Below, piece by piece: positions 2,815 through 51,949 of a stretch of 64,000 nucleotides of DNA; within the stretch, counting starts at the first letter, position 1; each line of letters starts with the position of its first letter. Origin of the DNA: Patescibacteria group bacterium (GTDB lineage: Bacteria; Patescibacteriota; Doudnabacteria; UBA920); assembly GCA_013387205.1 (NCBI GenBank), contig WARV01000008.1, forward strand, positions 136 through 64,135, in the 5' to 3' direction. The notes beneath the pieces are model-generated. The model did no database searches and was not told the origin of the DNA. It saw nothing but the letters and a program-made list of their open reading frames with translations. The position numbers and the translations under genes were made by a program.

Positions 2815-3035
2815 AAAATAAATTGACCTAATTGCTCTAAATTATTATTAACTCATCCTGTCCTTCTCTTTAGCAAAGAGAAGGAACCAGCTTAGCAAGG
2901 CTATAATCTTTCTTAGCATGTTCTCCCTCTTTATCATGGAGACAGAGGGAGTTAGTATTAGAAATTAGAAATTGGGAATTGTTTAGTCCGCCAGCTGGCG
3001 GAAATTAGGTCAATTAGGTTAATTAGAAATTCGCA
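2815..3035. repeat. composite intergenic palindromic element: family A termini (aattgacctaattgctctaa ... ttaggtcaattaggttaattagaaat) enclosing family B core and a CCGCCAGCTGGCGG palindrome
   Basis: Family A 5' module at 2821-2840 and 3' module at 3005-3030. B core 2851-2952 with hairpins tccttctctttAGCaaagagaagga and ctccctct..agagggag. Same composite found inverted at 30005-30177. Confidence 0.7.
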
Positions 3036-3039
3036 GCCT

Positions 3040-3918
3040 ATGAAAAATAATCAGCAGATAATAATTGTTCTAGTGTTTTCTATTCTTTTGGCATTATTTC
3101 TGTCATCAGTCTTTTCAGGTAGAGTAATCCTTCCTCAATATTTTAGTTTGGGCCCTGTTACAATCAGGTATTATGGGATAACAATAGTGGTCGCTATTTT
3201 AGCGGCTTATTATTTGGCGATGAAACGCAGAATGGTTTACGGAATTGAAAATAAGGATGCGGAAAATATAATTTTTTGGACAATTATCGGGGGATTTCTC
3301 GGCGCGCGGGTGTATCACGTGTTTTCCAGTTTTGGTTTTTATTTACATCATCCTTTGCAAATTCTACAGGTCTGGAAAGGCGGCCTTTCAATTTACGGCG
3401 CTTTAATCGGCGGCGTAACCTCGATAATTATTTGCCATGAAATCTTAAATCTTAAATCTAAAATCTTAAATCTTTTTGACTGGCTCGCGCCATCCCTTCT
3501 ACTCGGCCAGATTATCGGCAGATTCGGTAATATGTTTAATTACGAAGCGTTCGGTTATCCAACGAATTTGCCTTGGAAAATGTTCGTGCCAATAGGCTTC
3601 AGACCGGAAAATTTATCTCAAAGCAACTATTTTCATCCTCTCTTTTTATACGAAGCTCTTGGTAATGCCATAATTTTGTTTTTCTTATTGAGATACGAAA
3701 AAAAGATGGGCCAAAGCGGTTACTTAGGGGCAAGGCCGGGACGGCTTTTCTTTATATATCTTTTATTGTATAATATATTAAGGTTTTGCCTGGAATTTTT
3801 AAGAGTGGACAGCACTTTTATTGGCATGTTCAGGTTGAATTCCATCACAAGCTTTGTTTTAGTATTAATATCTTTAGGCTTTTTACTTTTTAACCGACGC
3901 GATGCAAAAATATCATAA
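3040..3918 (+). CDS. lgt: prolipoprotein diacylglyceryl transferase
   Basis: Polytopic membrane protein with Lgt signature GGFLGARVYH ... GGLSIYGALIGG ... GRFGNMFNYEAFGYPTNLPW. Contains an in-frame atcttaa heptad repeat (3441-3472, LNLKSKILNL). Confidence 0.85.
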   Translation: MKNNQQIIIVLVFSILLALFLSSVFSGRVILPQYFSLGPVTIRYYGITIVVAILAAYYLAMKRRMVYGIENKDAENIIFWTIIGGFLGARVYHVFSSFGFYLHHPLQILQVWKGGLSIYGALIGGVTSIIICHEILNLKSKILNLFDWLAPSLLLGQIIGRFGNMFNYEAFGYPTNLPWKMFVPIGFRPENLSQSNYFHPLFLYEALGNAIILFFLLRYEKKMGQSGYLGARPGRLFFIYLLLYNILRFCLEFLRVDSTFIGMFRLNSITSFVLVLISLGFLLFNRRDAKIS

Positions 3919-10684: not shown

Positions 10685-11782
10685 TCAGGCGAAATACATC
10701 AATGCAATTACAATCAAAGAAATAATAAGTATTGTAATGTTGTTTATTTTGCGGTCGAAGTTCGCAAGTTTTTTTTGCAGGACTACTTTCGCGTCAGCCA
10801 AAAGGAAATAAAGCACGACAATCCCTAATCCCAAAACAAAATAACGGTTAAGGCTGTTTTTTCCCTGGGCTTCATCGATTAAATTTTGCGGTATAACGGC
10901 ATCAGCAGAGGTTTTAAACGTATTATTACTTTGAGTGGTATCGGCCGTTGAAGCTTTGGCGGTTGCAGTTGTAGTTGGGCTTTTGGCCTGTGTGGAATTT
11001 TGCTCCAGGCTGTCTCGCGGTTTTAAACTAGCTGAAGACGTAGAATTTTGGGTAGCTGCAGGCTTTGCATCGGCAATTTGCACAGGAGCGGGGGTGGGTG
11101 TGGAAATTGGCGCGGGTTTTGCCGCTGGAGTTGCTGGCTTTGGCGCAGGCTGTGGAGCTGGTTTTGGGGTCGGAGCAGGCGGCGGGGGAGTGGTTTTTTG
11201 CGCCTTAACAAGCAAAGCGCCAAAAGTATTTACAATAGCTGAATGGTATTGTTCCAAAGACGAATTGCCAAAGTCCAAACCCATTCCTTGGTCTTTAAAA
11301 CCTTCCTGCAAAATGTTGGCGCGGTGGGTCGGGCTGTTCATCCAGGCGGAAACCAAACTTTCTGTGCTTGAAAATTCAATGGCCAAATTTTCGCCGAGCT
11401 GCAAATACGGCGAATACCCCGCAGCTACAATTTTATCCCAAATATAATTTCCTTCAGGATCGATATGGCTAAAGTAGTGCCTGGCAATCATGTCGTCGGC
11501 CTTGCTTTGCGCGGCTGACGACAGTTTAAAATTCGTATTTAAGGCGGCTAAATTCCGCATGGTGCGCTCTTTGTTTATCGCGCTCAGAATATTTTCCGGA
11601 GTCAAATCTGAAGCGAAAGAATTCGGTACAGGCTTAAAAAGCAAAGAAATGGCGATTTTGAAAATCAAAAATAGCAGCAAAATAATTGCCAGGGATTCAA
11701 GCTTGAGTATTTTAGGAAAAGTGGCAGCCGGGGCTGTGACAGAAATGCCGGCTTCGTCGTTTAACGGGTTAATGTTCTCCAT
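10685..11782 (-). CDS. CAP/SCP/PR-1 domain protein with Pro/Ala/Thr-rich linker and C-terminal TM anchor
   Basis: HYFSHIDPEGN ... AWMNSPTHRANIL CAP motifs, (PAPKP)n linker, C-terminal hydrophobic segment. Confidence 0.8.
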   Translation of the reverse strand: MENINPLNDEAGISVTAPAATFPKILKLESLAIILLLFLIFKIAISLLFKPVPNSFASDLTPENILSAINKERTMRNLAALNTNFKLSSAAQSKADDMIARHYFSHIDPEGNYIWDKIVAAGYSPYLQLGENLAIEFSSTESLVSAWMNSPTHRANILQEGFKDQGMGLDFGNSSLEQYHSAIVNTFGALLVKAQKTTPPPPAPTPKPAPQPAPKPATPAAKPAPISTPTPAPVQIADAKPAATQNSTSSASLKPRDSLEQNSTQAKSPTTTATAKASTADTTQSNNTFKTSADAVIPQNLIDEAQGKNSLNRYFVLGLGIVVLYFLLADAKVVLQKKLANFDRKINNITILIISLIVIALMYFA

Positions 11783-11907
11783 TAGGGTATGTCATTATCA
11801 TTAATAGCGCTTTTAAGGTAATGGCGGCTTTCTCGCATTGGCCGACCAATGGCCAAAATGCTTGTTTGGCCTTATTCATAAGGTATTTTAGCATTTATCC
11901 TATGCTC

Positions 11908-11940
11908 TTGACAAATCTATAAAATTATGCTAAGATAAGC
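11908..11940 (+). promoter_or_regulatory. candidate promoter of sortase gene (TTGACA-17-TAAGAT)
   Basis: ttgacaaatctataaaattatgctaagat about 55 nt upstream of the ATG at 11992. Confidence 0.35.
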
Positions 11941-11991
11941 AGTTAAATGATTATTCTTTACCCATAAATCCCCAACAAAACTATCAAAACT

Positions 11992-13434
11992 ATGTCCGAC
12001 CACAGCCTCAAAAAAACTGAAAAAAAGTATCCGATTGCAACCGCGGAAATCGCGCAGATTTTTGGCTTGCCTGAATCTAGCATTGCGGAAGGCGCTTTGC
12101 CGGTTGTCAGCGATAAGGACAGTAGCGGACATGTTCCGGGATTTTCCAATGCTGCCGGCAATTTACCCGTAAAAGATTTGCCTGTTTTAGACAGCCATAC
12201 TCCTGAAAATATTCCACACGTTGCGGGTTTAAGCGAAGCCAGGCCCGTGCAAAAAGATTTAACTAAAAATATTGCTGCTTTAACAGGCTCTGGCAAAATT
12301 CCGCCGACCGGCCATATGAATGATGCAAATTTGTTAAACCAAAACCCCGGCGGTTCTAAGTTTGTAAAATTTTTGAAAAACATCGCTCCTTACGTTGCGG
12401 TTTTTTCCATCGGCATATTTTTGTATTTCTTTTTCTTCACCAAAACCGATTTTTCAAAAATCTTCAACATAAAACCGAAAGCGGAAACTCCGCAGCAAAG
12501 CGCCATTAAGCAGCTTGAAAGCAAGAGTATGGTTGGTTACCAGAACTGGATAAGCGGCTTTTACTTTGATGTTTCAGATCCGGAAGTGCTGAATCCTGAC
12601 GCTGATAATTCCGGCAATGGCTTGTCTAACTTCCAAAAATATCTTTTGAATTTAAACCCTAAATCTTACGATACTTTGGGACTTGGCATGGCTGACAGCG
12701 AAGCGCTGGCCCAGGGGATAAACCCGCTTACCGGCGGAAAGCTTAATGAGAACCAAAAAAATATCATCAGCAAATACTTTGACATGGAAGTCATTATGAA
12801 CAGGCTGGCTTTAAGCCAATTGCAAAAAAACGGCCAGGTTGCAGGGACAAATGTCGGCATCAACAACAGCATGGGCGCATACAGAAGTTTTGGCAGCCAA
12901 CCGGCACAGTCTGGCAATGTCAATGCCAATGTTGCCGCTAACGGAAACGTTGACCCGGTCATGCTAAGCGAATCTGACGTGAACACTTCCATTCCGGGCA
13001 GGTTGGAAATTCCTGACCTTGGAGTAAATGTGCCGATTATCTGGTCAAGCGACCCTAAAAACTTTGAGCAGGATTTAAAGAGCGGCGTGGTGCATTATCC
13101 TGGCACTGCCATGCCGGGGCAAATCGGCACTGCTTACATTTCCGGACACTCCAGCAACTACGCATGGGCAAAAGGAAATTACAATAAAGTATTTTCCAAA
13201 CTTGGCGATTTGGCAGATAACACTTCATTTAAAATCACTGTAGTAAACAAATCCGGCAAAGACGTGATATATCATTACGTGGTTGTCGGCAGGCAGCAGT
13301 ACGATGCCAAAGACCAGGCTCAATTCAGGAACGCGGGCCAGTCAGTCGTGGCTTTATCCACTTGCTGGCCAGTCGGTACTACTGCCAAGAGATTGGTCGT
13401 GTACGGACAAATGACACAGGTAGAAAATAAGTAA
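11992..13434 (+). CDS. sortase-family transpeptidase with long N-terminal region and TM anchor
   Basis: C-terminal domain shows the His (AYISGHSS), Cys (VALSTCWP) and Arg (TTAKRLVVYG) triad arrangement of sortases. TM at about residues 125-147. Confidence 0.7.
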   Translation: MSDHSLKKTEKKYPIATAEIAQIFGLPESSIAEGALPVVSDKDSSGHVPGFSNAAGNLPVKDLPVLDSHTPENIPHVAGLSEARPVQKDLTKNIAALTGSGKIPPTGHMNDANLLNQNPGGSKFVKFLKNIAPYVAVFSIGIFLYFFFFTKTDFSKIFNIKPKAETPQQSAIKQLESKSMVGYQNWISGFYFDVSDPEVLNPDADNSGNGLSNFQKYLLNLNPKSYDTLGLGMADSEALAQGINPLTGGKLNENQKNIISKYFDMEVIMNRLALSQLQKNGQVAGTNVGINNSMGAYRSFGSQPAQSGNVNANVAANGNVDPVMLSESDVNTSIPGRLEIPDLGVNVPIIWSSDPKNFEQDLKSGVVHYPGTAMPGQIGTAYISGHSSNYAWAKGNYNKVFSKLGDLADNTSFKITVVNKSGKDVIYHYVVVGRQQYDAKDQAQFRNAGQSVVALSTCWPVGTTAKRLVVYGQMTQVENK

Positions 13435-13440
13435 AATAGA

Positions 13441-13583
13441 ATTGACCTAATTAACCTAATTATTTCTAATTATTCTAAATAAATCCTAATGACTAAACCC
13501 CAAAATCTGGTCGTAATTGGGTATTGGGACTTAGACATTATTTAGGTCAATTAGAGTAATTAGAATAATTAGGTTAATTCTTT
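13441..13583. repeat. family A palindromic intergenic element
   Basis: aattgacctaattaacctaattatttctaatt ... ttaggtcaattagagtaattagaataattaggttaatt. Confidence 0.7.
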
Positions 13584-13717
13584 GCTGAGTAGATCGTATT
13601 CATTAGCTTATAACGAATACTATTCTACTCGGCTATTCGGCCGGTAGATGCCTCCGAAAGGCGGCAAAAAATACGGTCGAAAAGACGAGTGACGAATTCT
13701 AAGGAGGAATTCAAGTT

Positions 13718-15235
13718 ATGAAGAACGCTATGAACGCGATGTTTTTTGCGGTGATGGCTGCTATTCTCGCCGCAGGTACGGTTTTCGGACAGGAGACGCT
13801 GTTTCAGCTTCCTGTGGAGAAATCTTCAACCCAGCTTCTGCAGGAAATGCAGAAGCCGCGGGAAAAAACCATCACGGTTGCCGGCGTCAGGCTTTTCCAG
13901 CCTTTGCCGACTGAGAAATCGGTCGTCGACGACGAACATATGATCAGCGCCCTGCAAATGATCCTGACCGGCCCGAACGCCGACAGGTTTCGTGCAGATT
14001 ACGGGCAATTGCCAACTAGGCAGGAGCAAGAAGCGTTGGTTTTGTTGTACAAGCCAGACGCGGCAACAGCGACTGTCACCAGAAGGCTGTTTAAACCGGA
14101 CGAAGTTACCATTATCAACGACCCGGCATTAGTCCTTGAGCCAGGTGACTGGCGCGTGTTCCATCGCTGGAATGTTGACCCGATTTTGAATCGGGAAAAG
14201 CAGACCAGCGAGAACCGCATCACGCAGATATCTGACCTCAAGCGGTTTTTGCCGCTCATCAATTCCCGGATTGATCAAACAAGCTATCCGGCGGAAATTA
14301 AAGATGAGTGGAAGACTGTTCTCGAGAACTGCATTGACGGCTTAACTGGAGAATATGCCGGGTACTGCAAAGAAGTTGTGGTGTCCGAGTGGGCCCAGTA
14401 TTGGGAATTGATGCTCGGCGGCAGGTCTCACGCAGCCAAAGTGCATTACGTTCCTGACCCGGAATGGCGCGACGCCAAAGCAGTGGCCATGTTCTTGCCA
14501 AAAGCGGGAATGTGGGTAGCACAAGGCTTTGCATGCTGGGGAAATCCGTTTGTTCCGTACCAGTCGCATCGCTTTGATGTGACGAAGACGGAAGTGCAGC
14601 CAATCCCAGGATTCGGCTGTAAGATCTCCCAAGACAAGTCTGTCCTGTCCAGCAGGACAGATAGCGCAGCTTTCAAGCTTTCGGTATTCAGCGACAGTAC
14701 GCCGATTAAGATGGATTTTACAAGTCCATACTCTTCGGTAGATTGGTACCTGGATGCCAGGCTTATGACTCGAAATGTAATGAATGTTGAAGTGTTCGGG
14801 TCAGATCTCGGCGCTCCCGGCGGACCTTATCGGGTCCTCGCACGCGTGACCATTGGCAAGCAGCAAGTGGAATGTTACGGTGATTTGATGTATAAGGAAC
14901 TTCCACCTGTTGTTCCGCCTAAAGTTGTTATTCCGCCGCCAACTCCAATAGTACCGCCTCCAGTAGTTACGCCGCCGCCAAAGCCGGAATGTCCGGAATG
15001 CAAGCACAAGGTTTGGCCTTGGATTCTGGGAGCAGCGGTCGCTGGCGGAGCTGTATGCGGCATCACGTATGCAGCGCACGTCGCGCCATGCGGTCACGAA
15101 GAAAAAGTAACACCGACCAAAACACCAATAGGCCCCGGACAAATAATGGGATCGAGCGCAACAACAATCACGCCATCAGTATTTATCGATCCTAGGACAC
15201 GTACCAAAGCCTTCGGCTTTAAGGTTCGCTTCTAG
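13718..15235 (+). CDS. secreted/membrane-anchored hypothetical protein, compositionally foreign (high GC, strong SD)
   Basis: Signal peptide MKNAMNAMFFAVMAAILAAGTVFGQE, Pro-rich PPVVPPKVVIPPPTPIVPPPVVTPPPKPECPEC, then TM WPWILGAAVAGGAVCGI. aaggagga SD 8 nt upstream. Visibly GC-richer than its flanks, with many spurious antisense ORFs. Confidence 0.7.
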   Translation: MKNAMNAMFFAVMAAILAAGTVFGQETLFQLPVEKSSTQLLQEMQKPREKTITVAGVRLFQPLPTEKSVVDDEHMISALQMILTGPNADRFRADYGQLPTRQEQEALVLLYKPDAATATVTRRLFKPDEVTIINDPALVLEPGDWRVFHRWNVDPILNREKQTSENRITQISDLKRFLPLINSRIDQTSYPAEIKDEWKTVLENCIDGLTGEYAGYCKEVVVSEWAQYWELMLGGRSHAAKVHYVPDPEWRDAKAVAMFLPKAGMWVAQGFACWGNPFVPYQSHRFDVTKTEVQPIPGFGCKISQDKSVLSSRTDSAAFKLSVFSDSTPIKMDFTSPYSSVDWYLDARLMTRNVMNVEVFGSDLGAPGGPYRVLARVTIGKQQVECYGDLMYKELPPVVPPKVVIPPPTPIVPPPVVTPPPKPECPECKHKVWPWILGAAVAGGAVCGITYAAHVAPCGHEEKVTPTKTPIGPGQIMGSSATTITPSVFIDPRTRTKAFGFKVRF

Positions 15236-15413
15236 CGTTTAATCGGCGAAGGGGTGGGGGATTAGCCAAAAGCTATTCTCCCATCCCTCTCATACCTTTA
15301 AGGAAAAATTAAGATCTCTGGTTAAAATCCGTCAAAATCATCAGAATTAAGCGGAATTTAACGAGGGATGTTATAAATACGATAAAAATATAAAAAATCT
15401 AAATTTTTTTAGT

Positions 15414-15570
15414 GTCATTGCGAGCGATTTAAGGTCCGCCAGCTGGCGGATTGGCTTAAATTGCGTGGCAATCTAAGCAGGGAAAGATTACTTCCCCCTT
15501 CGCTAAAGCTACGTCGGACAAGTCGGATGCCCCAAAGGAGCCTCTTTGAGGCACTCCTCCTCGCAATGAC
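15414..15570. repeat. family C element (GTCATTGCGAG ... CTCGCAATGAC terminal inverted repeats) carrying a CCGCCAGCTGGCGG palindrome
   Basis: gtcattgcgag at 15414, ctcgcaatgac ending 15570, internal tcggatgccccaaaggagcctctttgaggcactcc module shared with 23296-23358. Confidence 0.7.
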
Positions 15571-15682
15571 AGGTAATTAATTGCATTTCACAAATCTCAA
15601 AAATCAGCTATAATAATATATCTTATTAATGCGAGAAATTATTAAATTAGCCTTGTTTTAAGGATTTTTTAGTAAATTAGCC

Positions 15683-15711
15683 TTGACAAAGAGGGGAAAA
15701 AGGCGTATAAT
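15683..15711 (+). promoter_or_regulatory. consensus sigma70 promoter TTGACA-17-TATAAT
   Basis: ttgacaaagaggggaaaaaggcgtataat, 24 nt upstream of the ATG at 15735. Confidence 0.6.
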
Positions 15712-15734
15712 AGTAGGTCATTAAAATATAATAT

Positions 15735-18700
15735 ATGAACCAAATGTTTTCAAAAATCTCTATAAAGACAGCTTTTCTGGCCGCTTTTGCAGTACTTGCT
15801 TTGTTAGCTTTGGCGCCAAGAAAGATTGATATAACCCAGGCCGAAAGCTGCTCAAACCCTCCGACTCATCCGGCATTTAATGTCTATCAAATAGATTTTT
15901 CCGGAAGCGGCTGTACTGATTACCCGACCATGATGGCCAGGGTTTTGCGTAATGGCCAGGAAATCCAAGGCTACCAGAGCGTGTATAATTCAGGCGCCAA
16001 TGCCCAAGCTGGCGATGAATTAGACGTTGTTGTTTACGTGCACAACGGCGCTGCGGAAAACTTAGACCCAGAACAAACTACCGCACGCGGAATTTATTTG
16101 AATACTACAGTCGACGGCACCTTTGAACCGGAACATACCATTAGCGTGACTGTCACTTCGCAGAACGCTGCTACCGTAAACGGCGCTTTTGGCATACATA
16201 CCGCTTCCAATGAAGCTTTGCAGGTTATCCCGAATAGCGGAGCCGTCTACGAACGCGGCAATCCAAACGCAATCCAGAGCGGATTGAACATCGGCGATAA
16301 TTCTTTTTCTTTGGGCGACATGCACGCCTGCTACCAATATTTGCGCTTCGTGCACTTTAGGGTTAAAGTCGTTGCCAAGCAAGTCCAGCCGACCGCAAAC
16401 ATTAGCGCCCAAGTCGGCTCGCAGGTCAACGGACAGTGCTTGCTTAACGGCAGCGTTACCTGGTCTTCGGAAAATGTCACTAACCCGCGCGTTTACGTAA
16501 AAGACGTGAATGATAATTTTGAACAATTGTTGGCTTCTGCTCCAAACGGCACTTCTGACACGCCTTGGCTTAAGCCGAACGATTCTTACATTTTTACTTT
16601 CAGGGGCGATAATATCCAGGACAAAACCGCCAATGTCACGACCGGCAATTTGAGCTGCGCTGTTCCGCCTGCCGGCAAAAACACTATCACTGCCCAAGCC
16701 GGCAACCAGATTGGCGCGCAGTGTTTGAGGGATGGTACTGTGAGCTGGACCAACGCTTCCAATGTCTCTATTGTGGAAGTTACTGTCCAGGATATTACCA
16801 CCAGTTCTCCGGTTAACAGCATAACCGGCCCTGCCGGCTTTCCCAACAGCAGCAGCGACACTCCTTGGCTGACCCCGGGCGATACTTTTCGCTATATTTT
16901 GTACGATACTACCAATGGCCAGCATACGGAACTGGCCAGGTATGATTTAAACGTGCCCACTTTAAACTGTGTCGTCACGCCTCCTGTCAGCTACACCCTG
17001 ACTACCAACAAGACTGATTATTGCGTGGGCGACATCCCGCAGTACACCATCACTTCTTCTCCAGCTTTGGCCGGCAAGAAAATCTTGTGGTCTTCTTTCT
17101 TCAACGGCCAGCCGACTGGCGAAATTAACACGGACTACGGTTTTTACCTGGACGCCAACGGCTTCTGGTCTGCTTATGGCAGCGGCTGGTACAGCAAAGA
17201 CATTGGTTCCTGGGTCAAGGAAGCCAACATTGACGGCGTGAAAAAGTCTGTCAGCTTTACCGTAAGGAACTGCGCGGCTCCGGTACCTACTTTAACCTGT
17301 ACTCCAGAAAACCAGACAACTGACATAGGCACAATCGTGTTCTTTACTGCTAATGGTGGAACTAGTCCTTATACCTTTACCGCTCCGGAAGGCGTAAATT
17401 CTTTCCCGAACGGAAGTAGTGGTTTCCATACCACGTATTTCAGCGCGGGCGACAAAGTTGTGACTGTTAAAAGCACTGATGGCCAGACAGCCATTTGTAA
17501 TGTGCATGTAAAAACCCCCCCGTCCCAGACTTTAGTTTGTTCTCCTTCTAGCCAGACTGTAAATGTAAACCAATCAGCCCTCTTTTCGGCAACCGGCGGC
17601 AAGGGAAGTTATACCTGGATAGCCAACGGCGGCAGCCCGGCGTCCGGAGCCGGCGGTTCTTTCTCTACGCAATACGCGTCCAGTGGCAGTAAGACCGTAA
17701 CTGTAGCCAGCAGCGACGGGCAGACGGCAAATTGTTACGTGCAGGTGAGCCCGCCGATTGAGCAGAATTTGGTTTGTACCACTTTAACTCCTTCTGTTGA
17801 TATTAACCAGACAGCCAATTTTTCCGCTACAGGCGGCAATGGCTCGTATTCCTGGTCTGCGGTTGAAGGATATCCTTCAAGCGGGGTTGGAAACAGCTTT
17901 TCTTCAAAATTCGCTACCAGCGGCAGCAAGACAGCTGTGGTAACAAGTGGCAGCAAAACCGCCACATGTTACGTGCAGGTTAGCCAGCCCGTAGTACAAA
18001 AAGGCGTATTGCAGATTTCCAAAGAAGTCAGGAATGTGACAAGCGGCGGGGATTTCAGCCATACAGCTTTCGCCAACCAGAATGACATAGTGGAATACCG
18101 CATTAAGGTATCGGCTGCGACTAATGTAGTGTTACAAAACGTTAAAGTAACCGATACTAGCAATTCCGGAATCGCTTACGTTGACGGAACTTTAACCCAG
18201 GACGGCGCAGTCCATGCTCCGGGGCTAACCTCTGGCGGCATTATTATCAGCCAGGTTGGGCAGACTCCGGTAGTGTTTACCTATAGGGCAAAAGTTTTAA
18301 TCAATAGCGGATCTGTCATAAACACGGCTTCGGCTTCTGCTGATAACGCCATTAACACTCCTTATGACCAGGCAGTTGTTACTGTTACTTTTATACAGCC
18401 CGGCCAGCCATCTATGACCATTACCAAGCAGGTGATGAATGTTACCAAAAATACCGGCTTTAGCTCTTCTGTTTCCGCAACCAAAGGCGATACTGTAAAA
18501 TACCAGATTGTTGTTTCTAACGTAGGAAACGCGGATGCTACTAATGTTTTCGTTAATGACAGCAACCCGATTGGCAACATAACAGGATTAACAGTATCAA
18601 GAAGCGGTTTTGGCGGAACGTTCGGCGCAAGCGGGATTTCTTTGGGCACTTTGGCCAAAGGAGAAAGCGTGACCATAACTTACAGCGGTACTGTGAATAT

Positions 18701-19853
18701 TGACAACGGGAATATCTTGAATGTTGCCACTGTTTCAGCCAGCAACGCGGCTTCGCAAAACGCCAGTGCGAATGTTTATGTCTCAACCAGCGTAATCCCA
18801 CCGATTATCCCTCCGAGCAATTATTACTACTACAATAACACCAGCAATAATTGCGTCAATAATTCCTGCAATACAACTACAACTACAACCAATACGTACA
18901 ACAATACCTATTATTACTACTCCAATCAAACCACTCCGGTTCCTTCCGCTGAATTTAGGCAATTAGGAATCAGGAAATTGGTCAGGAATATCAATGGCGG
19001 CACTTTCCAGGAAAGCATTACTGCCAATAACGGCGATATTGTGGAATACGAAGTTGTCGTGACCAACATTGGCAACCAGGTTGTGAATAATGTTAAGCTG
19101 ACTGACAGCAGCAACAACGGCGGTTTGTCTTGGACCAATTCCACTTATGTGGATGGCAGCCAGGCAACTTGGAATGGCAACGCTTTGTATTTGGGAAGCT
19201 TGTTCACTGGACAGCAAAAGCGCGTAGTTTATCAGGCCAGGGTGAATGGCGCTTCGGGCGCGAGCATCCAGAATATCGCAGTCGCTTCGGGAGACAATAC
19301 CAACTCTGTGCAGGATAGCGCTTGGGTATTCATTAGCGGCGTGGCCGGCAGTAATGTCAATTTGACTTACAGCAAGCGCGCGTTCAATGACACTAAGAAT
19401 GTCGATGCGACTACAATACCGGCTAATAGGGAAGAATATATCACTTACACTTTGACTGTTTTTAATAACGGTAACGCTCCTGCCAACAACTTTGTCATTT
19501 CCGATGATTTGTCCCAGGTCCTGCCTTACGCGGATTTGGCTGACAACGGCGGCGGTACGATTTCCGGAAACGTTATCAGCTTCCCGGGGATTACGGTTCC
19601 GCAGGGCGGCAGCGTGCAAAGGAGTTTCAAGGTCAGGATTAAATACCATTTGGCCGAGAACTTGAATTACGTGATGACCAACACTTACGGAAATACCGTA
19701 ACTATAAACATCAACACCCCGCAGGTTAAGGGAGCGTTCATTGCCCCAAGGACCGGCGCAGATACTATGGCTTTGGCCTTCGGCGGATTACTCACATCAG
19801 CCTTTGCGTTGATTAAAAAGAGAAAGTATTTAATGACTTTGATCTTTACCTAA
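15735..19853 (+). CDS. giant (1372 aa) secreted surface protein with DUF11-type repeats, N/T/Y-rich low-complexity segment and sorting-signal-like C-terminus
   Basis: Signal peptide. Repeated motifs such as EYRIKVSAATNVVLQNVKVTDTSN, KYQIVVSNVGNADATNVFVNDSN, EYEVVVTNIGNQVVNNVKLTDSSN (DUF11 / conserved repeat domain). C-terminus FIAPRTGADTMALAFGGLLTSAFALIKKRKY (motif + hydrophobic stretch + basic tail). Confidence 0.85.
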   Translation: MNQMFSKISIKTAFLAAFAVLALLALAPRKIDITQAESCSNPPTHPAFNVYQIDFSGSGCTDYPTMMARVLRNGQEIQGYQSVYNSGANAQAGDELDVVVYVHNGAAENLDPEQTTARGIYLNTTVDGTFEPEHTISVTVTSQNAATVNGAFGIHTASNEALQVIPNSGAVYERGNPNAIQSGLNIGDNSFSLGDMHACYQYLRFVHFRVKVVAKQVQPTANISAQVGSQVNGQCLLNGSVTWSSENVTNPRVYVKDVNDNFEQLLASAPNGTSDTPWLKPNDSYIFTFRGDNIQDKTANVTTGNLSCAVPPAGKNTITAQAGNQIGAQCLRDGTVSWTNASNVSIVEVTVQDITTSSPVNSITGPAGFPNSSSDTPWLTPGDTFRYILYDTTNGQHTELARYDLNVPTLNCVVTPPVSYTLTTNKTDYCVGDIPQYTITSSPALAGKKILWSSFFNGQPTGEINTDYGFYLDANGFWSAYGSGWYSKDIGSWVKEANIDGVKKSVSFTVRNCAAPVPTLTCTPENQTTDIGTIVFFTANGGTSPYTFTAPEGVNSFPNGSSGFHTTYFSAGDKVVTVKSTDGQTAICNVHVKTPPSQTLVCSPSSQTVNVNQSALFSATGGKGSYTWIANGGSPASGAGGSFSTQYASSGSKTVTVASSDGQTANCYVQVSPPIEQNLVCTTLTPSVDINQTANFSATGGNGSYSWSAVEGYPSSGVGNSFSSKFATSGSKTAVVTSGSKTATCYVQVSQPVVQKGVLQISKEVRNVTSGGDFSHTAFANQNDIVEYRIKVSAATNVVLQNVKVTDTSNSGIAYVDGTLTQDGAVHAPGLTSGGIIISQVGQTPVVFTYRAKVLINSGSVINTASASADNAINTPYDQAVVTVTFIQPGQPSMTITKQVMNVTKNTGFSSSVSATKGDTVKYQIVVSNVGNADATNVFVNDSNPIGNITGLTVSRSGFGGTFGASGISLGTLAKGESVTITYSGTVNIDNGNILNVATVSASNAASQNASANVYVSTSVIPPIIPPSNYYYYNNTSNNCVNNSCNTTTTTTNTYNNTYYYYSNQTTPVPSAEFRQLGIRKLVRNINGGTFQESITANNGDIVEYEVVVTNIGNQVVNNVKLTDSSNNGGLSWTNSTYVDGSQATWNGNALYLGSLFTGQQKRVVYQARVNGASGASIQNIAVASGDNTNSVQDSAWVFISGVAGSNVNLTYSKRAFNDTKNVDATTIPANREEYITYTLTVFNNGNAPANNFVISDDLSQVLPYADLADNGGGTISGNVISFPGITVPQGGSVQRSFKVRIKYHLAENLNYVMTNTYGNTVTININTPQVKGAFIAPRTGADTMALAFGGLLTSAFALIKKRKYLMTLIFT

Positions 19854-19904
19854 AATAGAATTTTGAATTCTGAATTTGGAATACAGAATTAAGAACAAAA
19901 AACA

Positions 19905-19936
19905 AAGGGCATTCCGATTTATCGGAATGCCCTTTT
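19905..19936 (+). terminator. intrinsic terminator after giant ORF
   Basis: aaagggcattccgatttatcggaatgcccttttat. Confidence 0.6.
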
Positions 19937-20237
19937 ATGGTATTTTAATCTCCCTTAATCCCTCCTTTGAATAGGAGGGAAACTCTGCAGATCTCTCCCG
20001 TGTCTTAGGAGAGGTTAGGTGAGGGTATTATAAGAAATTTAAACGGCTAAATCCTAGGAAATCTACGATTTTGCCGTTTATTTTTATGTGCATCTGGATC
20101 CCGGATAACCCATCGGATGCTCTTCGGGATTCCGGGATGGGACGGTGGTGTAAAAGATGGTCATTGACAATAATTACTATCTGAACTTTGACGTTCTTAA
20201 TGAATTATGAGAAAATTATTTATACCAACAAAATAAA

Positions 20238-20741
20238 ATGTATACAAAAGAAACAAATTTTGCATTCGTAGATAGCCAGAATCTAAACCTGGGGATTAAA
20301 AGCTTGGGGTGGGATTTAGATTTTAAAAAATTCAGAATATATTTACAAGAAAAATATCATGTAAAAGTGGCGTATCTATTTATCGGCTACATGCAGCAAA
20401 ACCAAGACTTGTATGCCCAGCTACAAAAGTATGGTTACGTGTTAATATTCAAACCCACCCTGCCTGACAAGGACGGTAAAATTAAAGGGAATGTAGATGC
20501 TGATTTGGTTTTGCAAGCAATGATAGATTTAAAAAATTACGACCAGGCGTTAATAGTTACTAGTGACGGAGATTTCTATTCGTTAGTTAAATATTTATAT
20601 GAACAGGAAAAATTAAAATTAGTAATAAGCCCTTATGTAAAGACCTGTTCCTCCTTGCTTAAGAAGTCCGCTAAAGAAAAGATTGTATTTATGGATAATC
20701 TGAAGGGAAAACTGGAATATAAAGGAAAAAGCACCGCTTAA
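20238..20741 (+). CDS. NYN (LabA-like, PIN-fold) domain protein
   Basis: FAFVDSQNLN ... GNVDADLVLQAMID ... IVTSDGDFYSLV, the acidic motif pattern of NYN/LabA nucleases. Confidence 0.75.
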   Translation: MYTKETNFAFVDSQNLNLGIKSLGWDLDFKKFRIYLQEKYHVKVAYLFIGYMQQNQDLYAQLQKYGYVLIFKPTLPDKDGKIKGNVDADLVLQAMIDLKNYDQALIVTSDGDFYSLVKYLYEQEKLKLVISPYVKTCSSLLKKSAKEKIVFMDNLKGKLEYKGKSTA

Positions 20742-20993: not shown

Positions 20994-22172
20994 ATGGACA
21001 ATAATTATCTCAATGATTTAATTAATGAAACGCAAAGCAGGGGAGGTGGGTTGCTTTTGAATTTTAACGAAAAGCCTGCAGTAGTAGTGCTGACAGTTGA
21101 AAAATATAACGAGTTGCTGCAAAAACCGGATGTGGTTTTTAAGCAGCAGATGGTTTTGGGAGACATGGCTGAACAGGTTTCTGAAAAAGGAAAAATTTTG
21201 GTGACCGGCGGGGCAGGGTATATTGGTTCACACCTTGTCAGGCAATTATTAGAGCACGGATACGAAGTAGTGATTTTGGATAACTTAAGCACCGGGAAAA
21301 AAGAGAATATTCCGGCAGGCGCGAGTTTTATTGAAGGAGATTTGAAAGATGTGAATTTGTTGCGCGATATTTTTGCCGCGCATCGCATTAGTGCGGTCGT
21401 CCACATGGCGGCCAGCATCGAGGTTGAAGAGTCTGTCAGGGAGCCGGAAAAATATTTTGAAAACAATGTGGGTAACACGGAAAAGCTGCTGGTCGCCATG
21501 AACGAGGCTGGCGTAAAAAAAATAATTTTTTCTTCCACCGCAGCAGTTTATGGGGAGCAGGAAAAAATGCCGATTACGGAAAATTCCCCGGCCAGGCCGA
21601 ATAATCCATACGGCTATACCAAACTTTTGGCGGAAAAAGCCATAAAGTATTACACGAAATACGCCGGGCTGAAAGCGATAATTTTCAGGTATTTCAATGC
21701 CTGTGGCTGTGATTTTGACGGGTCTATTATTCCAACACACGAATCGCATTTAATCCCAATAGTATTAGAAGTTGCCAAGGGCATAAGACCGCACCTGCAA
21801 GTGTATGGCGGCGATTATAAAACTTTTGACGGCACATGCATTAGGGACTACGTGCATGTCTTGGATATTGCCAAAGCGCACGTTGCTGCTTTGGAAAAAA
21901 TTGACGGAATGGATAATTTTAATATAATCAACATCGGCACAGGCCGCGGCAGCAGCGTTAAAGAAGTCATAAATGCGGCATCAGAAGTTTTAAATAAAAT
22001 TATTCCCATGGAAATCGGCGCGCGAAGGGCCGGTGATTCTGTAATCACGGTTGCGGATAATACAAAGCTAAAACAAATTCTCGGATACGAACTCAAGCAT
22101 AGTGACCTTGAAACCATTATTAAGACTTCCTGGAATCAGATTAGCAATAAAGTTTCAGCTGCCTTATCTTAA
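20994..22172 (+). CDS. galE: UDP-glucose 4-epimerase with ~65-aa N-terminal Phd/YefM-antitoxin-like extension
   Basis: GalE core KILVTGGAGYIGSHLV ... YGYTKLLAEK. N-terminus NFNEKPAVVVLTVEKYNELL resembles the Phd/YefM antitoxin fold motif. An internal Met (MAEQVSEKGKILVTGG) could give a standalone GalE. Confidence 0.8.
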   Translation: MDNNYLNDLINETQSRGGGLLLNFNEKPAVVVLTVEKYNELLQKPDVVFKQQMVLGDMAEQVSEKGKILVTGGAGYIGSHLVRQLLEHGYEVVILDNLSTGKKENIPAGASFIEGDLKDVNLLRDIFAAHRISAVVHMAASIEVEESVREPEKYFENNVGNTEKLLVAMNEAGVKKIIFSSTAAVYGEQEKMPITENSPARPNNPYGYTKLLAEKAIKYYTKYAGLKAIIFRYFNACGCDFDGSIIPTHESHLIPIVLEVAKGIRPHLQVYGGDYKTFDGTCIRDYVHVLDIAKAHVAALEKIDGMDNFNIINIGTGRGSSVKEVINAASEVLNKIIPMEIGARRAGDSVITVADNTKLKQILGYELKHSDLETIIKTSWNQISNKVSAALS

Positions 22173-22467: not shown

Positions 22468-23070
22468 TCAGTTGCTATATAGCAGTTGATGGCCTCTCGC
22501 AATCGTTTGCAGGTTTTCGGCTTCGCGGCACGCGCCGCCAAAGTTGTGGTGGGTTTTCACCTCCTGGATGACTTTGGTCGCTTTCCGGTAAATACTGGCC
22601 ATCAAGCAGAACCTCGTTGCCATGTCGCAGAAAGTGAGAACGTTCCTTCCAAAGCAGCAGTTGGAATAAATATCATAAATCATCCAACTGTACTTGTCGT
22701 TTCCGCCGTACGTAACCTTGCCGTCGGAAATTTTAATCTCACAAGCACTGTTGGTGATTCCACTGCGCACAGTGATGGTCACTTGCGAAATCATTTCACT
22801 TATAGGCAAGATATCGATCTTGTCATTGACCAAAGGCCTGTTCCAGCTTGTTAGCTGATCGAACGTTCCATAAATCTGGGATGGGCTTATAACCATCTCA
22901 GTTTCCAACTCTCTGGTCGGCAGGAGTTTTTTACCTAGGATTATGCCCTTTTGCTGGTTTGGGACAATGCGGAAGCGCAACTCACGGAACTGATCGAGTG
23001 TTTCCTGGTAAAACCGTTCCTCGAATTTCGGAGGAATTATCGGGTGCGTCAAAAGGCTCAGGTTAACCAT
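22468..23070 (-). CDS. hypothetical Cys-rich protein, compositionally foreign (high GC, SD present)
   Basis: Likely start ATG at 23070 (aagaggaaaggcaatATG on minus). Track ORF extends to 23325. GC visibly higher than surroundings, with both strands open. No family assigned. Confidence 0.55.
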   Translation of the reverse strand: MVNLSLLTHPIIPPKFEERFYQETLDQFRELRFRIVPNQQKGIILGKKLLPTRELETEMVISPSQIYGTFDQLTSWNRPLVNDKIDILPISEMISQVTITVRSGITNSACEIKISDGKVTYGGNDKYSWMIYDIYSNCCFGRNVLTFCDMATRFCLMASIYRKATKVIQEVKTHHNFGGACREAENLQTIARGHQLLYSN

Positions 23071-23295
23071 ATTGCCTTTCCTCTTTCTTGTTTTGCCGCT
23101 GTTAAGCGGAACGACAGAAATTTTTAGGACCTGTCGCACATCCCGTTTGAGTAGCAATATAATACCATTTATGTCTTTGTTAATCAATCCTGTGTTACAA
23201 AACAGCAAATTTGTCGTTATATTATATATAATGCGAAATAGGATCAAGTTGTCATTACGAGGAGCCCGCAGGGCGACGTGGTAATCTTTGTACCA

Positions 23296-23491
23296 TGATA
23301 AGATTGCTTCGGTCGGATGCCCCAAAGGGGCCTCTTTGAGGCACTCCCTCGCAATGACATTGCTTGTTTGCTGTCATTGCGAACCCTGATATTTTATAGC
23401 TTTTAAATATCATGGTGAAGCAATCTGTTTAAGAGATTCTTCGCTACGCTCAGAATGACGCCTGAGGAGTAGTGGATTCGCTCGCAATGAC
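23296..23491. repeat. family C elements: one 3' half-copy (23296-23358) plus one full copy (23374-23491)
   Basis: ctcgcaatgac at 23348-23358 and 23481-23491, gtcattgcga at 23374. Internal gaagcaatctgtt..aagagattcttcg hairpin as in the 51322 copy. Confidence 0.7.
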
Positions 23492-23658: not shown

Positions 23659-24393
23659 ATGAAAAAATTATCCGTGGTTATTCCCGCCTATAACGAAGAG
23701 CAACGCATTGCCAAAACTTTGCTTGCCGTAGGCGAATATTTATCGAAACAAAATTACGATTACGAGATTTTGGTGGTTAATGATGGCTCAAAAGACAACA
23801 CCGCAGGAGTTGTCAGGGCGCAGATGGATAAAATAAAAAACCTGCATTTAATTGACCATCATGAAAATCATGGCAAAGGCTGGGTGACAAAAGACGGCAT
23901 GCTGCATGCAAACGGCGATGTACGCGTATTTTTGGATGCGGATAATTCCACCAAAATTGATGAAATTGGCAAAATGCTGCCATTTTTCGACCAGGGTTTT
24001 GATATTGTGGTCGGCTCCAGGCGCATAGAAGGTTCGCATTTAGATGTTAAGCAGAATTTTCTCAGGGATACTTTGGGCGGAATTTTCAGGCTGATTGTGC
24101 ATACCGTGGTACCAGTCGGCGTCACTGATACCCAATGCGGCTTTAAGGCTTTTTCCGCAAAATCAACCGAAGCCATTTTTCCCAAACAGACAATTTTCCG
24201 CTGGGCTTTTGACGTAGAGATTCTGGCTTTAGCCAGAAAGCAGGGTTTTAAAATAAAAGAAGCACCGGTTACTTGGGTTAACGACGGAGCCAGCCATGTT
24301 AAGCTCTCCGGAATGATTAAAATGCTTTTGGAAATAATACAGATCCGATTTAATTTGTGGTGCGGAAAATACAATAGTAATGACAAAAATTAA
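23659..24393 (+). CDS. GT2-family polyprenyl-phosphate glycosyltransferase (DPM-synthase/GtrB-like)
   Basis: KLSVVIPAYNEEQRIAKTL ... ILVVNDGSKDNT ... FLDADNS. Stop lies within a family D element. Confidence 0.85.
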   Translation: MKKLSVVIPAYNEEQRIAKTLLAVGEYLSKQNYDYEILVVNDGSKDNTAGVVRAQMDKIKNLHLIDHHENHGKGWVTKDGMLHANGDVRVFLDADNSTKIDEIGKMLPFFDQGFDIVVGSRRIEGSHLDVKQNFLRDTLGGIFRLIVHTVVPVGVTDTQCGFKAFSAKSTEAIFPKQTIFRWAFDVEILALARKQGFKIKEAPVTWVNDGASHVKLSGMIKMLLEIIQIRFNLWCGKYNSNDKN

Positions 24394-24470
24394 AAAAATG
24401 ACAAGATTGACATAAATAATCTGCAGTTAATATTTTGTCATTTCCGTCGTTTTTGTCATTTTTGTCAATA
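24380..24470. repeat. family D (TGACA-rich) palindromic element
   Basis: aatgacaaaaattaaaaaaatgacaagattgacataaataat ... ttttgtcatttccgtcgtttttgtcatttttgtcaat, near-identical to 36145-36233. Confidence 0.6.
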
Positions 24471-26344: not shown

Positions 26345-26490
26345 ATTAACCTAATTATTCTAATTGCTCTAATTGACCCCGTGTCAGGCACGGGGCAGGC
26401 TCTAAATAAATCACAATACCCAAATCCAAAATTAAAAATTAGGTATTAGGATTTGATTAGACTAATTAGGTCAATTAGGTTAATTAGAAA
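26345..26490. repeat. family A palindromic element (contains ccccgtgtcaggcacgggg hairpin)
   Basis: aattaacctaattattctaattgctctaattgacc ... ttaggtcaattaggttaattagaaat. 3' module abuts the start codon of the next gene exactly as at 3005-3039. Confidence 0.7.
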
Positions 26491-26500
26491 TTTGCAGTCT

Positions 26501-50642: not shown

Positions 50643-50733
50643 TCCGAATTACCCGAAATATTTATCCAAATGCCCCAAATAAAATAAGATGCATTCGGAT
50701 AATTCGGATGTTAATTCGGGGCATTAGGATTAC
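50643..50733. repeat. family E long imperfect inverted-repeat element
   Basis: ataatccgaattacccgaaatatttatccaaatgccccaaat ... gcattcggataattcggatgttaattcggggcattaggatta, ends 4 nt before the GT4 ATG. Confidence 0.65.
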
Positions 50734-50737
50734 ATTA

Positions 50738-51949
50738 ATGAGGGTTGCTTTAGCACATGATTCGTTTACTCAATTAGGCGGAGCGGAAAGGGTAATTGCA
50801 GAATTACACGAGATGTTTCCGGAAGCCCCGATTTTTACTTTGGTTTTAGACCGGAAGTTAAAGGGTGATTTTGCCGGCTGGGATATTAGGACATCATGGC
50901 TTCAGGTGTTATACAATTTCATTCCCAAGTTGCAGTACCTTTTGCCATTTATTCCTCTTGCTGTTTCGTCCTTGGATTTGTCCGGGTACGATGTGGTAAT
51001 TTCTTCCAGCTCAAGCTGGATTAAGAATATCAAGACGCCGAAAAATTGCATCCATATCTGCTATTGCCACACGCCTACCAGGTTTTTATGGGTAGATAAA
51101 GATTATGTGTCGCAAGAAGTGCCGAAATTTTTAAAGCCTTTGGTAAATTGGCTGCTTAAATTAATGAAAAAGTGGGATTTTAAAAAGGCGCAAAAAATCA
51201 ATTTTTTTATTGCCAACTCCAAAGAAGTCCAAAATAGGATTTCCCAATATTACCATCGTGACAGCGTAATAATTTACCCGCCGGTTGATACAAATTTTTG
51301 GCATCCAATCGCCCCGTCATCGTCATTGCGAGTGCAGCCGAAGCAATCTGTTAGATCAAACCAAGAGATTGCTTCGTCCACCTTCGCTGAAGCTACGGCG
51401 GACCTGCGATCGGATGCACTTCTCGCAATGACATCAAAAAAGGATTATTTCCTTATTGCCGGACGCCTGCAAGCGCACAAAAAGAATAATTTAATTGTTG
51501 AGATATTTAACGAGATCGGCTTGCCTTTGCACGTAGCGGGGACAGGACGCCAGGAAGATTATTTGCAATCCATTGCCAAGCCAAATATCAAATTTTTAGG
51601 CAGGATTAGCGACGAACAACTTAGGGATGAATACAGCGGAGCAAAAGGTTTAATTTTCCCGCAGCTCGAAGATTTAGGGCTAATTCCCATAGAAGCGGCC
51701 AGCTGCGGCACGGCAACTATCGCTCTTGCCAAAGGAGGTTCTTTGGAAACTGTAGTTCCCGGAGTAACAGGGGAATTATTTGAAACTTACGATAAGGAAA
51801 AAATCAAACAGATAATTCTTTCATGGAACCCGGATAAATATTCCCAAGAAAATTTAACGGTTCACGCTAAAAAGTTCGGCAAAAATTCATTTAAGGAAAA
51901 ATTATTGGAATTCATAAATAAAAATAATCTCAATGAAAGAAAGGTTTGA
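50738..51949 (+). CDS. GT4-family glycosyltransferase with in-frame 37-codon repeat-element insertion
   Basis: MRVALAHDSFTQLGGAERV (GT4 N-domain) ... FLIAGRLQAHKKNNLIVEIF ... FPQLEDLGLIPIEAASCGTATIA (GT4 C-domain). Inserted segment SLRVQPKQSVRSNQEIASSTFAEATADLRSDALLAMT corresponds to the family C element. Confidence 0.85.
   Translation: MRVALAHDSFTQLGGAERVIAELHEMFPEAPIFTLVLDRKLKGDFAGWDIRTSWLQVLYNFIPKLQYLLPFIPLAVSSLDLSGYDVVISSSSSWIKNIKTPKNCIHICYCHTPTRFLWVDKDYVSQEVPKFLKPLVNWLLKLMKKWDFKKAQKINFFIANSKEVQNRISQYYHRDSVIIYPPVDTNFWHPIAPSSSLRVQPKQSVRSNQEIASSTFAEATADLRSDALLAMTSKKDYFLIAGRLQAHKKNNLIVEIFNEIGLPLHVAGTGRQEDYLQSIAKPNIKFLGRISDEQLRDEYSGAKGLIFPQLEDLGLIPIEAASCGTATIALAKGGSLETVVPGVTGELFETYDKEKIKQIILSWNPDKYSQENLTVHAKKFGKNSFKEKLLEFINKNNLNERKV
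51322..51432. repeat. family C element (GTCATTGCGAG...CTCGCAATGAC), 111 bp, inserted in-frame within GT4 coding sequence
   Basis: gtcattgcgag 51322-51332, ctcgcaatgac 51422-51432, internal gaagcaatctgtt..aagagattgcttc hairpin. 111 = 3 x 37, reading frame preserved. Confidence 0.7.

Follow-up and report, generated by a model that had tools for sequence, protein, structure and literature searches.

A probable cell-wall sorting system of Doudnabacteria: a lineage-specific sortase linked to a giant surface protein with an APxTG sorting signal

A 64,000-nt stretch of DNA (hereafter the window) from a member of the Doudnabacteria (UBA920), within the Candidate Phyla Radiation (CPR)/Patescibacteria, was analyzed (assembly GCA_013387205.1, contig WARV01000008.1, positions 136-64,135, forward strand). 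The locus examined lies at 11992-19853 of the window and encodes a sortase and a giant secreted surface protein. We consider it probable, with good though not full confidence, that this lineage-specific sortase and its linked, strongly promoted main substrate constitute a cell-wall sorting system of Doudnabacteria, in which APxTG takes the place of LPXTG. An earlier reading of this DNA (the original prediction) had proposed a dedicated sortase-substrate pair with a divergent motif. The linkage of the pair was upheld, being found in 38/50 informative loci. Its exclusivity was not, as at least two unrelated APxTG families were found and 12 loci carry the sortase without the giant gene.

The sorting signal and its conservation

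The giant protein ends in FIAPRTGADTMALAFGGLLTSAFALIKKRKYLMTLIFT, followed by the stop codon. The original prediction had quoted this C-terminus as far as ...KKRKY, and the protein runs seven residues further. All on the + strand, the end comprises the motif F-I-A-P-R-T-G at 19737..19757 (lineage consensus [FY]-x-A-P-K-T-G), a 19-aa hydrophobic segment, ADTMALAFGGLLTSAFALI, at 19758..19814, and a basic cluster, KKRK, with an 8-residue tail, YLMTLIFT, at 19815..19850. The tripartite, sortase-type layout that had been proposed is supported by the TIGR01167 LPXTG_anchor model, which scored isolated tails at 17.0-21.9 bits against a cut-off of 15.9 (17.0 bits for the window tail); the ruminococcal NPXTG model was slightly under its cut-off on the same isolated tails. 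The pentapeptide in the window protein is A-P-R-T-G and does not conform to LPXTG. Cleavage would be expected between Thr1340 and Gly1341, a scissile bond predicted from characterized sortases (PMC4155245).

Conservation of the signal was assessed with a hidden Markov model (HMM) of the 43-residue tail, run against 1.84 billion cluster representatives at a threshold of E <= 1e-3. This exhaustive search was used in place of a word-indexed protein search with a 30-tail alignment, which had returned a single fragment. The HMM gave 87 matches, most of them homologs of the giant protein, and about 80 were genuine C-terminal signals. Among these 80 representatives the first motif position was Ala in 79 (one Pro, never Leu), and Pro, Thr and Gly were each present in 80/80. 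An F or Y preceded the Ala by two residues in 72/80. When the orthologous tails were reduced to 41 unique sequences, A, P, T and G were invariant while the flanking transmembrane (TM) residues varied freely; the third position was K in 35, and R occurred in the window protein only. The divergent first position that had been noted, Ala for Leu, therefore holds for 79/80 representatives and for all 41 unique tails. Orthologs typically end in [QV]VLGAF-[VIT]-A-P-K-T-G-A-[DE]-T, then a hydrophobic stretch, 2-4 basic residues and a short tail. Substrate tails run ~8-9 residues past the basic cluster, with exactly 9 residues after the first basic pair in 52/80 representatives, and in close relatives this post-basic tail is kept as x-L-x-K-L-I-F-T.

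Other proteins combining APxTG with a TM segment and basic residues, for which the original prediction had recommended a search, do exist: besides the orthologs, two families unrelated to the giant protein carry the signal. The first consists of small proteins of ~200-220 aa, encoded directly 3' of the giant gene in three deep-branching loci (L074, L076 and L079), with the endings YTAPITG, YIAPTSG or YKAPKSG. The second is marked by NPFGDWTGVNN repeats and one DUF11-like domain and ends in [FY]VAP[TKQ]TGV, a TM segment, KKRK and LFN. Genes of this repeat family do not adjoin a sortase. One of them lies on a contig syntenic with 49109-58698 of the window (45-60% amino acid identity), and because the two share the block Bac_transf / GT4 x3 / MurG / patatin / MurC, this contig is assigned to the same lineage. 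The sortase homologs of GTDB species representatives provided 78 loci, and every open reading frame (ORF) in them was also scanned for C-terminal sorting-type signals. No LPXTG-type signal was found in the ~1.3 Mb of sortase-centered loci or in the 64-kb window. The occurrence of the same motif in two unrelated families, one of them away from sortases, makes APxTG ([FY]xAPxTG), and not LPXTG, the predicted sorting motif of the whole lineage rather than a quirk of one family. It also means that the sortase and the giant protein are not an exclusive pair.

The sortase

The sortase gene (11992..13434, + strand) encodes 480 aa and was delimited by its ORF, Pfam and NCBIfam matches and alignment. 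The PF04203 Sortase model matched aa 338-474 (E = 2.5e-20; 72.9 bits against a cut-off of 26.6). Three residues, His386 in GHSSN (codon at 13147-13149), Cys458 in LSTCWP (13363-13365) and Arg467 in AKRLVV (13390-13392), all on the + strand, were invariant in an alignment of 23 homologs. The Cys and Arg align with the catalytic ones of the solved C. perfringens SrtC. Together with a membrane anchor at aa 132-150, these results bear out the membrane-anchored sortase with a His/Cys/Arg triad that had been predicted.

From its N-terminus the enzyme consists of a predicted cytoplasmic extension, aa 1-131 (11992..12384; placed by alignment and by basic residues ahead of the TM segment), the conserved anchor, APYVAVFSIGIFLYFFFFT (12385..12441; modeled as a helix over 124-149), a juxtamembrane extracytoplasmic domain, aa 166-278 (12487..12825; defined by invariant alignment columns), and the catalytic domain, aa 334-480 (12991..13431; from Pfam, alignment and fold match), all on the + strand. 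The basic residues suggest a type-II topology, with the N-terminus inside and the catalytic domain outside. In the extension, a variable low-complexity stretch comes after the conserved motif KKYPxxTxEVAKMLG, and the juxtamembrane domain (~110 aa) has the invariant core DNSGNGL-NF-K...LNPK-Y-T-G-G. Neither of these extra conserved regions gave a match in a Pfam search, even at E = 10. The full-length architecture is kept at ~50% identity in >100 homologs, and those that are named belong to Candidatus Doudnabacteria or Patescibacteria. A comparison by eye of substrate-tail variants with the alignability of the sortase N-terminus revealed no clean pattern.

In the case of class assignment, the window sortase is ~20-25% identical to solved sortases. 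Its AlphaFold2 model has a low overall pLDDT of 56, with a moderate catalytic domain, and serves at the level of the fold and not for specificity loops. Foldseek identified a sortase fold with probability 1.0 (E ~1e-8), and class C, A and E structures matched about equally. The NCBIfam class models scored 51.5 bits for SrtD (cut-off 140), 51.2 for class D (165), 44.4 for class C (160), 39.9 for class E (160) and 24.8 for class F (166); classes A and B were absent from the NCBIfam matches. The original prediction had left room for the sortase grouping with LPXTG-specific enzymes, and it did not do so, its best class model, class D, standing at 51 bits against 165. By these HMM scores, the sortase fits no class A-F model and is a putative lineage-specific enzyme.

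A promoter-like site, TTGACA-17-TAAGAT with an extended -10 TG, lies 5' of the sortase gene at 11908..11936 (+ strand). It scored 10/12 in the consensus scan and is putative.

Linkage of the sortase and giant genes

The giant gene (15735..19853, + strand; 1372 aa, with the NCBI start 3 codons later) follows the sortase gene in the same orientation, and both the ORF coordinates and the 2.3-kb gap between the sortase stop codon and the giant gene agree with the original prediction. Fifty of the 78 loci were informative, having sufficient downstream DNA for judging whether a giant gene is present. In 38 of these 50 a giant gene encoding 566-2354 aa lies on the same strand, 44-3427 bp 3' of the sortase gene (median 1.4 kb), and most loci have a single substrate gene. 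The 38 linked loci include the most divergent sortases (31-36% identity), and the linkage is therefore ancestral. The orthologous giant proteins were obtained through these sortase-centered loci, since in a full-length search with the giant protein the candidate list filled up with DUF11 words and no more than 4 true homologs emerged.

Several observations weigh against a sorting system built on this pair. In 12/50 loci, which make up one sortase clade, the enzyme is kept without a nearby giant gene; the sortases of these loci are 35-44% identical to the query and the synteny is otherwise the same. The window sortase is below every NCBIfam class cut-off, and the generic TIGR01076 model gave 34.8 bits against its cut-off of 39.35. 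On the substrate side, TIGR01167 was not listed on the full-length giant protein at E <= 0.01, PF00746 Gram_pos_anchor reached no more than 16.6 bits on the tails against a cut-off of 20, and the 8 residues past the basic cluster are atypical for a sorting signal. The tail HMM was seeded with APxTG tails and is biased towards APxTG. The tails are mostly those of orthologs, and shared ancestry could account for some of the motif conservation, a concern that the two unrelated families with predicted APxTG signals mitigate.

Some of these points would fit a C-terminus that is a mere membrane anchor, with the adjacency representing synteny without function, APKTG kept for structural reasons and other substrates for the sortase. 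The persistence of a sortase clade with no adjoining giant gene, the Pfam anchor scores under the cut-off, and the fact that the tails mostly belong to orthologs with 50-60% identity over the last 270 aa in any case are consistent with this explanation. We regard it as extremely unlikely, given that the [FY]xAPxTG, TM and basic layout recurs in two unrelated families of the lineage, that A, P, T and G do not vary where the adjacent TM residues do, that the 1.3 Mb around the sortases holds no LPXTG-like alternative substrate, and that the linkage spans the deepest divergence of the enzyme family. The interpretation as a sorting system is preferred, with one amendment: the further APxTG families and the 12 giant-less loci suggest an enzyme that serves the lineage as a general sortase and is linked to its main substrate.

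Architecture of the giant protein

The giant protein begins with a Sec-type signal peptide (aa 1-36; 15735..15842, + strand) that is basic, then hydrophobic, with a predicted cleavage after TQA (TQA|E); judged by eye, it is conserved in homologs. It is followed by a distal all-beta domain with conserved Cys residues (aa 37-216; 15843..16382, +), modeled by AlphaFold2 at pLDDT 75, for which no match at E < 0.01 was found in the PDB. Three PKD-like Ig repeats were read from the repeat pattern of the sequence at aa 518-750 (17286..17984, +), and the Pfam PKD and BiPBP_C matches to them are weak, each under its cut-off.

Four CLIPPER (DUF11/DUF7507) domains occupy aa 756-885, 890-1017, 1073-1201 and 1205-1331 (18000..19727, +). 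The matches, to 3-4 stretches, are well above the cut-offs (PF24346, 75.3 vs 27; PF01345, 71.0 vs 24.6; TIGR01451, 79.7 vs 24). DUF11 was renamed CLIPPER by Pfam and comprises CnaA-like, isopeptide-bonded stalk domains of fibrillar adhesins; such domains are typical of adhesins of this kind that are sortase-anchored (PMC12617251). When the repeats were aligned, Lys8 (strand 1), Asp52 (the Asp of V[TN]D) and Asn116 (C-terminal) were invariant in 4/4. The repeat profile matched crystal structure 9IFR at E = 1.9e-8, with the Asp column aligned to the Asp of 9IFR and the Lys beyond the aligned range. The CLIPPER region is the most conserved part of the giant-protein family: orthologs align mainly over aa 1055-1324, in the last ~270 aa, at 50-60% identity, and the distal parts are variable or unalignable. 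From these patterns, Lys-Asn isopeptide bonds are probable in all four CLIPPER domains, which lie near the membrane and would make up a rigid stalk.

The second and third CLIPPER domains are separated by an Asn/Thr/Tyr-rich, low-complexity linker, aa 1018-1072 (18786-18950), with a CVNNSCN motif that recurs in all close homologs. This linker may be a glycosylated or disulfide-bonded hinge.

A diversity-generating retroelement aimed at the giant gene was considered and set aside, as a search of the window found no template/variable repeat pair.

Promoter and terminator of the giant gene

A sigma-70 consensus promoter, TTGACA-17-TATAAT (12/12), precedes the giant gene at 15683..15711 (+ strand). 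It is the sole perfect match in 11700-20300, which substantiates the textbook promoter of the original prediction. A perfect promoter was present within 250 nt 5' of 20/40 orthologous giant genes, and a match of at least 11/12 in 27/40, compared to 12/12 matches in 0.85% of random 250-nt windows from the same loci. This conservation implies that the giant gene would be strongly and constitutively transcribed, as would fit a major component of the envelope. The transcription unit is closed by an intrinsic-terminator-like hairpin at 19904..19935 (+), with a 14-bp stem and T runs on both sides.

Two minor features lie beside this promoter. A 13-nt direct repeat, TAAATTAGCCTTG, occurs at 15640-15652 and 15673-15685, 33 nt apart, and its second copy overlaps the -35 hexamer. 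A second promoter-like site (11/12) is found at 15587-15614.

Proposed mechanism and the nature of the acceptor

The following sequence of events is proposed, with export, cleavage site and acceptor taken over from established sortase biology. The 1372-aa protein would be exported by Sec via its N-terminal signal peptide and be retained in the membrane by the C-terminal hydrophobic segment and the KKRK stop-transfer cluster. The type-II membrane sortase, with Cys458 as nucleophile and His386 and Arg467 as partners, would then recognize [FY]-x-A-P-(K/R)-T-G and cut between Thr and Gly (FIAPRT|G). A peptidoglycan-precursor amine would next resolve the acyl-enzyme and leave the protein covalently attached to the wall, where the isopeptide CLIPPER stalk would present a hypervariable, fast-evolving distal region. 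This region plausibly mediates attachment to a partner or host or acts as a coat. A few other APxTG proteins are probably substrates of the enzyme as well.

The window encodes RmlA/B/D-like enzymes, glycosyltransferases, a flippase, MurG, MurC and MurB. By gene content, the locus is a predicted cell-envelope neighborhood in a peptidoglycan-making organism. The surroundings also bear on a different outcome of the reaction, in which the sortase processes APxTG but the acceptor is a membrane lipid, a rhamnose-containing wall glycopolymer or water, yielding an S-layer-like tethered or shed coat. In keeping with this, the locus has dTDP-rhamnose, glycosyltransferase and flippase genes around it, a conserved S8 protease is encoded just 3', the lineage-wide perfect promoter argues for a very abundant envelope protein, and the enzyme stands outside the characterized classes with an extra conserved extracytoplasmic domain. 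The structure of the CPR envelope is also acknowledged as unclear (PMC5220378). We nevertheless judge such an acceptor unlikely. Peptidoglycan synthesis genes are present, the data point to no specific alternative, and the variability of the distal region in length and sequence fits an adhesin better than a lattice-forming S-layer. To our knowledge, moreover, all characterized sortases use an amine nucleophile of peptidoglycan or pilin.

Attachment of single protein molecules to peptidoglycan was also weighed against polymerization, in which a pilus-type, class C-like sortase would join the giant protein and the small APxTG proteins into covalent fibers. Many class C sortases are among the best PDB sequence and fold matches, and the class C model ranks near the head of the NCBIfam matches. 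Sortase and substrate genes lie together, as they do in pilus islands; in the three deep-branching loci the giant gene is directly followed by one for a second, small APx[TS]G protein; and pilins typically contain CLIPPER/CnaA-like isopeptide domains (PMC12617251). Against these stand features of both enzyme and substrate. No DP[FWY] lid motif was found in 10 sortases, the region ahead of the catalytic domain being unconserved, and the window sortase has no C-terminal TM segment, stopping 6 residues past the last strand. The YPK pilin motif is absent in 12 giant proteins, subunits of 900-2350 aa are unusual for pilins, most loci have one substrate gene, and the matches to class A, D and E sortases are about as good as those to class C. 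Pilus assembly is thus very unlikely, and anchoring of the giant protein to the wall remains the preferred reading.

We hold a bolder reading to be conceivable but doubtful. The enzyme would represent a seventh, CPR-specific sortase class with a native 7-residue [FY]-x-A-P-K-T-G signal, using two extra modules to handle its substrate and installing the lineage's most abundant envelope protein as a host-contact fibril or coat. The first module would be the cytoplasmic KKYPxxTxEVAKMLG peptide, which might read the conserved post-basic substrate tail, xLxKLIFT, and the second the DNSGNGL...LNPKSYDT juxtamembrane domain. The envelope protein would, on the same reading, be isopeptide-reinforced and probably glycosylated. 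If true, this would provide a ready-made natural sortase orthogonal to LPXTG enzymes.

Comparison with known sorting systems

A natural enzyme with a similar motif is C. difficile SrtB, which cleaves SPKTG/PPKTG between T and G and rejects LPETG (PMC4155245), so that motifs of this sort do function in nature. There too, the first position is small and not Leu, the third is usually Lys and an acidic residue comes next; the genome encodes no sortase besides SrtB, whose substrates are a handful of adhesin-like proteins (PMC4155245). The Doudnabacteria system differs in having Ala at the first position (79/80) and an aromatic residue two positions upstream, in an enzyme that has no class B match and carries a ~130-aa cytoplasmic extension and an extra extracytoplasmic domain, and in belonging to a CPR bacterium. 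With S. aureus SrtA and actinobacterial SrtE it shares the fold, the His/Cys/Arg triad, the type-II topology and the tripartite signal. Class A/E sortases anchor isopeptide-domain adhesins to peptidoglycan (PMC8225981), but the Doudnabacteria enzyme scores far below the cut-offs (40 vs 160 for class E, with class A not listed). Compared to LAXTG, which differs from LPXTG at position 2, the Doudnabacteria motif differs at position 1, and the substrate tail extends 8 residues past the basic cluster.

Motif variants at position 1, such as NPxTG and (S/P)PxTG, already exist. A proteobacterial 'marine' sortase is reportedly paired with an LP[QK]T[AS]T target (Comfort & Clubb 2004; TIGRFAMs). Proteobacterial pairs of this kind likewise place a lineage-specific sortase beside one main substrate with a non-canonical motif; they appear to be one-to-one, whereas Doudnabacteria have at least two further substrate families and a clade without the adjacent gene.

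The archaeosortase ArtA processes the PGF-CTERM S-layer glycoprotein (Haft 2012, cited in PMC12617251). The likeness lies in a very abundant, glycosylation-linked envelope protein, often with CLIPPER/DUF11 domains, that ends in a short C-terminal motif, a TM segment and a basic tail. ArtA differs in having an unrelated, polytopic exosortase fold and a lipid anchor, so that the analogy is functional only.

Sortases are widespread in CPR bacteria (PMC6744442), and other CPR genome papers mention them merely in passing (PMC4736985, PMC5220378). In the literature searched, no description of CPR sorting motifs or sortase substrates was found, and APXTG recognition was found described solely for laboratory-evolved SrtA variants (PMC9126251). 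The engineered S. aureus SrtA variants F40 and F1-21 accept APXTG, with APKTG as the F40 test peptide (Piotukh 2011 and Schmohl 2017, reviewed in PMC9126251). These are beta6/beta7-loop mutants of low activity (PMC9126251), whereas APxTG would be the native specificity of the Doudnabacteria enzyme. Where engineers had to evolve SrtA (PMC9126251), a predicted natural APxTG-specific sortase is on offer.

The system is a lineage-specific variation on ordinary Gram-positive anchoring and overturns nothing. The locus provides a comparatively validated triple of enzyme, motif and substrate for one CPR phylum, and annotation pipelines based on LPXTG will miss the sortase substrates of this lineage. 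The hypervariable distal end, the conserved isopeptide stalk and the consensus promoter together make the giant protein a candidate for host attachment in uncultured Doudnabacteria, and it is nominated as their dominant surface protein.

Neighboring genes and repeat elements

The gene order around the sortase recurs in other genomes. It begins with rml genes, a membrane protein and a divergent CAP-domain protein; the sortase comes next, then 0-2 variable type-I membrane proteins, the giant protein, an epimerase, GT2, an S8 peptidase and a ~620-aa protein. In the window, the CAP/SCP/PR-1 domain protein is encoded at 10685-11782 (-) and has an Ala/Pro/Thr-rich linker and a C-terminal TM segment. 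Its divergent orientation relative to the sortase is a conserved arrangement.

The variable gene between sortase and giant gene (13718..15235, + strand) encodes 505 aa with a signal peptide, a Pro-rich stretch and a C-terminal TM segment (KVWPWILGAAV...). The protein is without a sorting motif and gave no Pfam or NCBIfam match. Weak homologs (23-28% identity) occupy the same position in L007, L013, L014, L036 and L044; overall, the slot holds 0-2 such genes of varying length, and the intervening gene is missing from many loci. Its GC content (47-50%) exceeds that of the vicinity (~41-45%), and unlike the giant gene it has a canonical GGAGG ribosome-binding site. The raised GC at 14-18 kb was not taken as a sign of horizontal transfer: the composition of this ORF and of the giant gene, plus the conserved synteny, account for it.

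A few genes 3' of the sortase, an S8 subtilase (24479-26344; 621 aa) and an uncharacterized ~630-aa protein (26453-28354) are encoded. Their positions are kept in L001-L004 and in most sortase loci, including the 12 giant-less ones, and the two genes have common internal 41-nt repeats (25969/26146; 27985/28156). They may have a role in surface-protein processing.

The NAD-dependent epimerase gene at 20994-22172 encodes a ~65-aa N-terminal extension (…KPAVVVLTVEKYNELLQK…) ahead of a Rossmann domain that starts at aa 68. The extension appears conserved, the epimerases of relatives being 386-388 aa, and its sequence may resemble the N-termini of Phd/YefM antitoxins. An NYN-domain gene (20238-20741; predicted RNase) lies between the giant gene and the epimerase, and an ORF without a family match (22468-23325, -) follows the epimerase. 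Both are absent at those positions in L001-L004 and are local insertions beside palindromic elements at 23251-23491.

Further along the window, a patatin-like phospholipase gene (55235-58701) lies between murG and murC, as it does in L085 (13354-16454), a relative whose proteins are ~45-55% identical. A bacterial RNase P class A RNA is encoded at 48790-49115 (-), at 108 bits against a gathering score of 100, whereas the 64 kb yielded no tRNA genes.

The palindromic elements are 100-160 nt long with perfect inverted termini, GTCATTGCGAG...CTCGCAATGAC, and occur in the window at 15414-15570, 23251-23358, 23373-23491 and 51322-51432. Copies are also present in L007, L040, L041, L043 and L081. There were 9 terminus matches, compared to 0.75 expected, and no matching Rfam family was found. 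The copy 5' of the giant-gene promoter folds strongly, at -68 kcal/mol (z = -4.3). The copy at 51322-51432 lies in frame inside a GT4 gene (50708..51949) and coincides exactly with a 40-aa insertion that is missing from the L085 ortholog. In such in-frame insertion into genes the elements are like the Rickettsia palindromic elements.

Intergenic arrays with a 9-bp period lie just 5' of several genes. Those of type AATTAGNNN are at 13437-13582, 3003-3046, 26446-26507 and 37596-37657, and those of type TGACAAAAA/TTGACA-like are at 24373-24426, 36139-36192, 40750-40795 and 45998-46069. The array past the sortase stop codon forms a long imperfect palindrome. These arrays could be genome-specific promoter-proximal or terminator-like elements.

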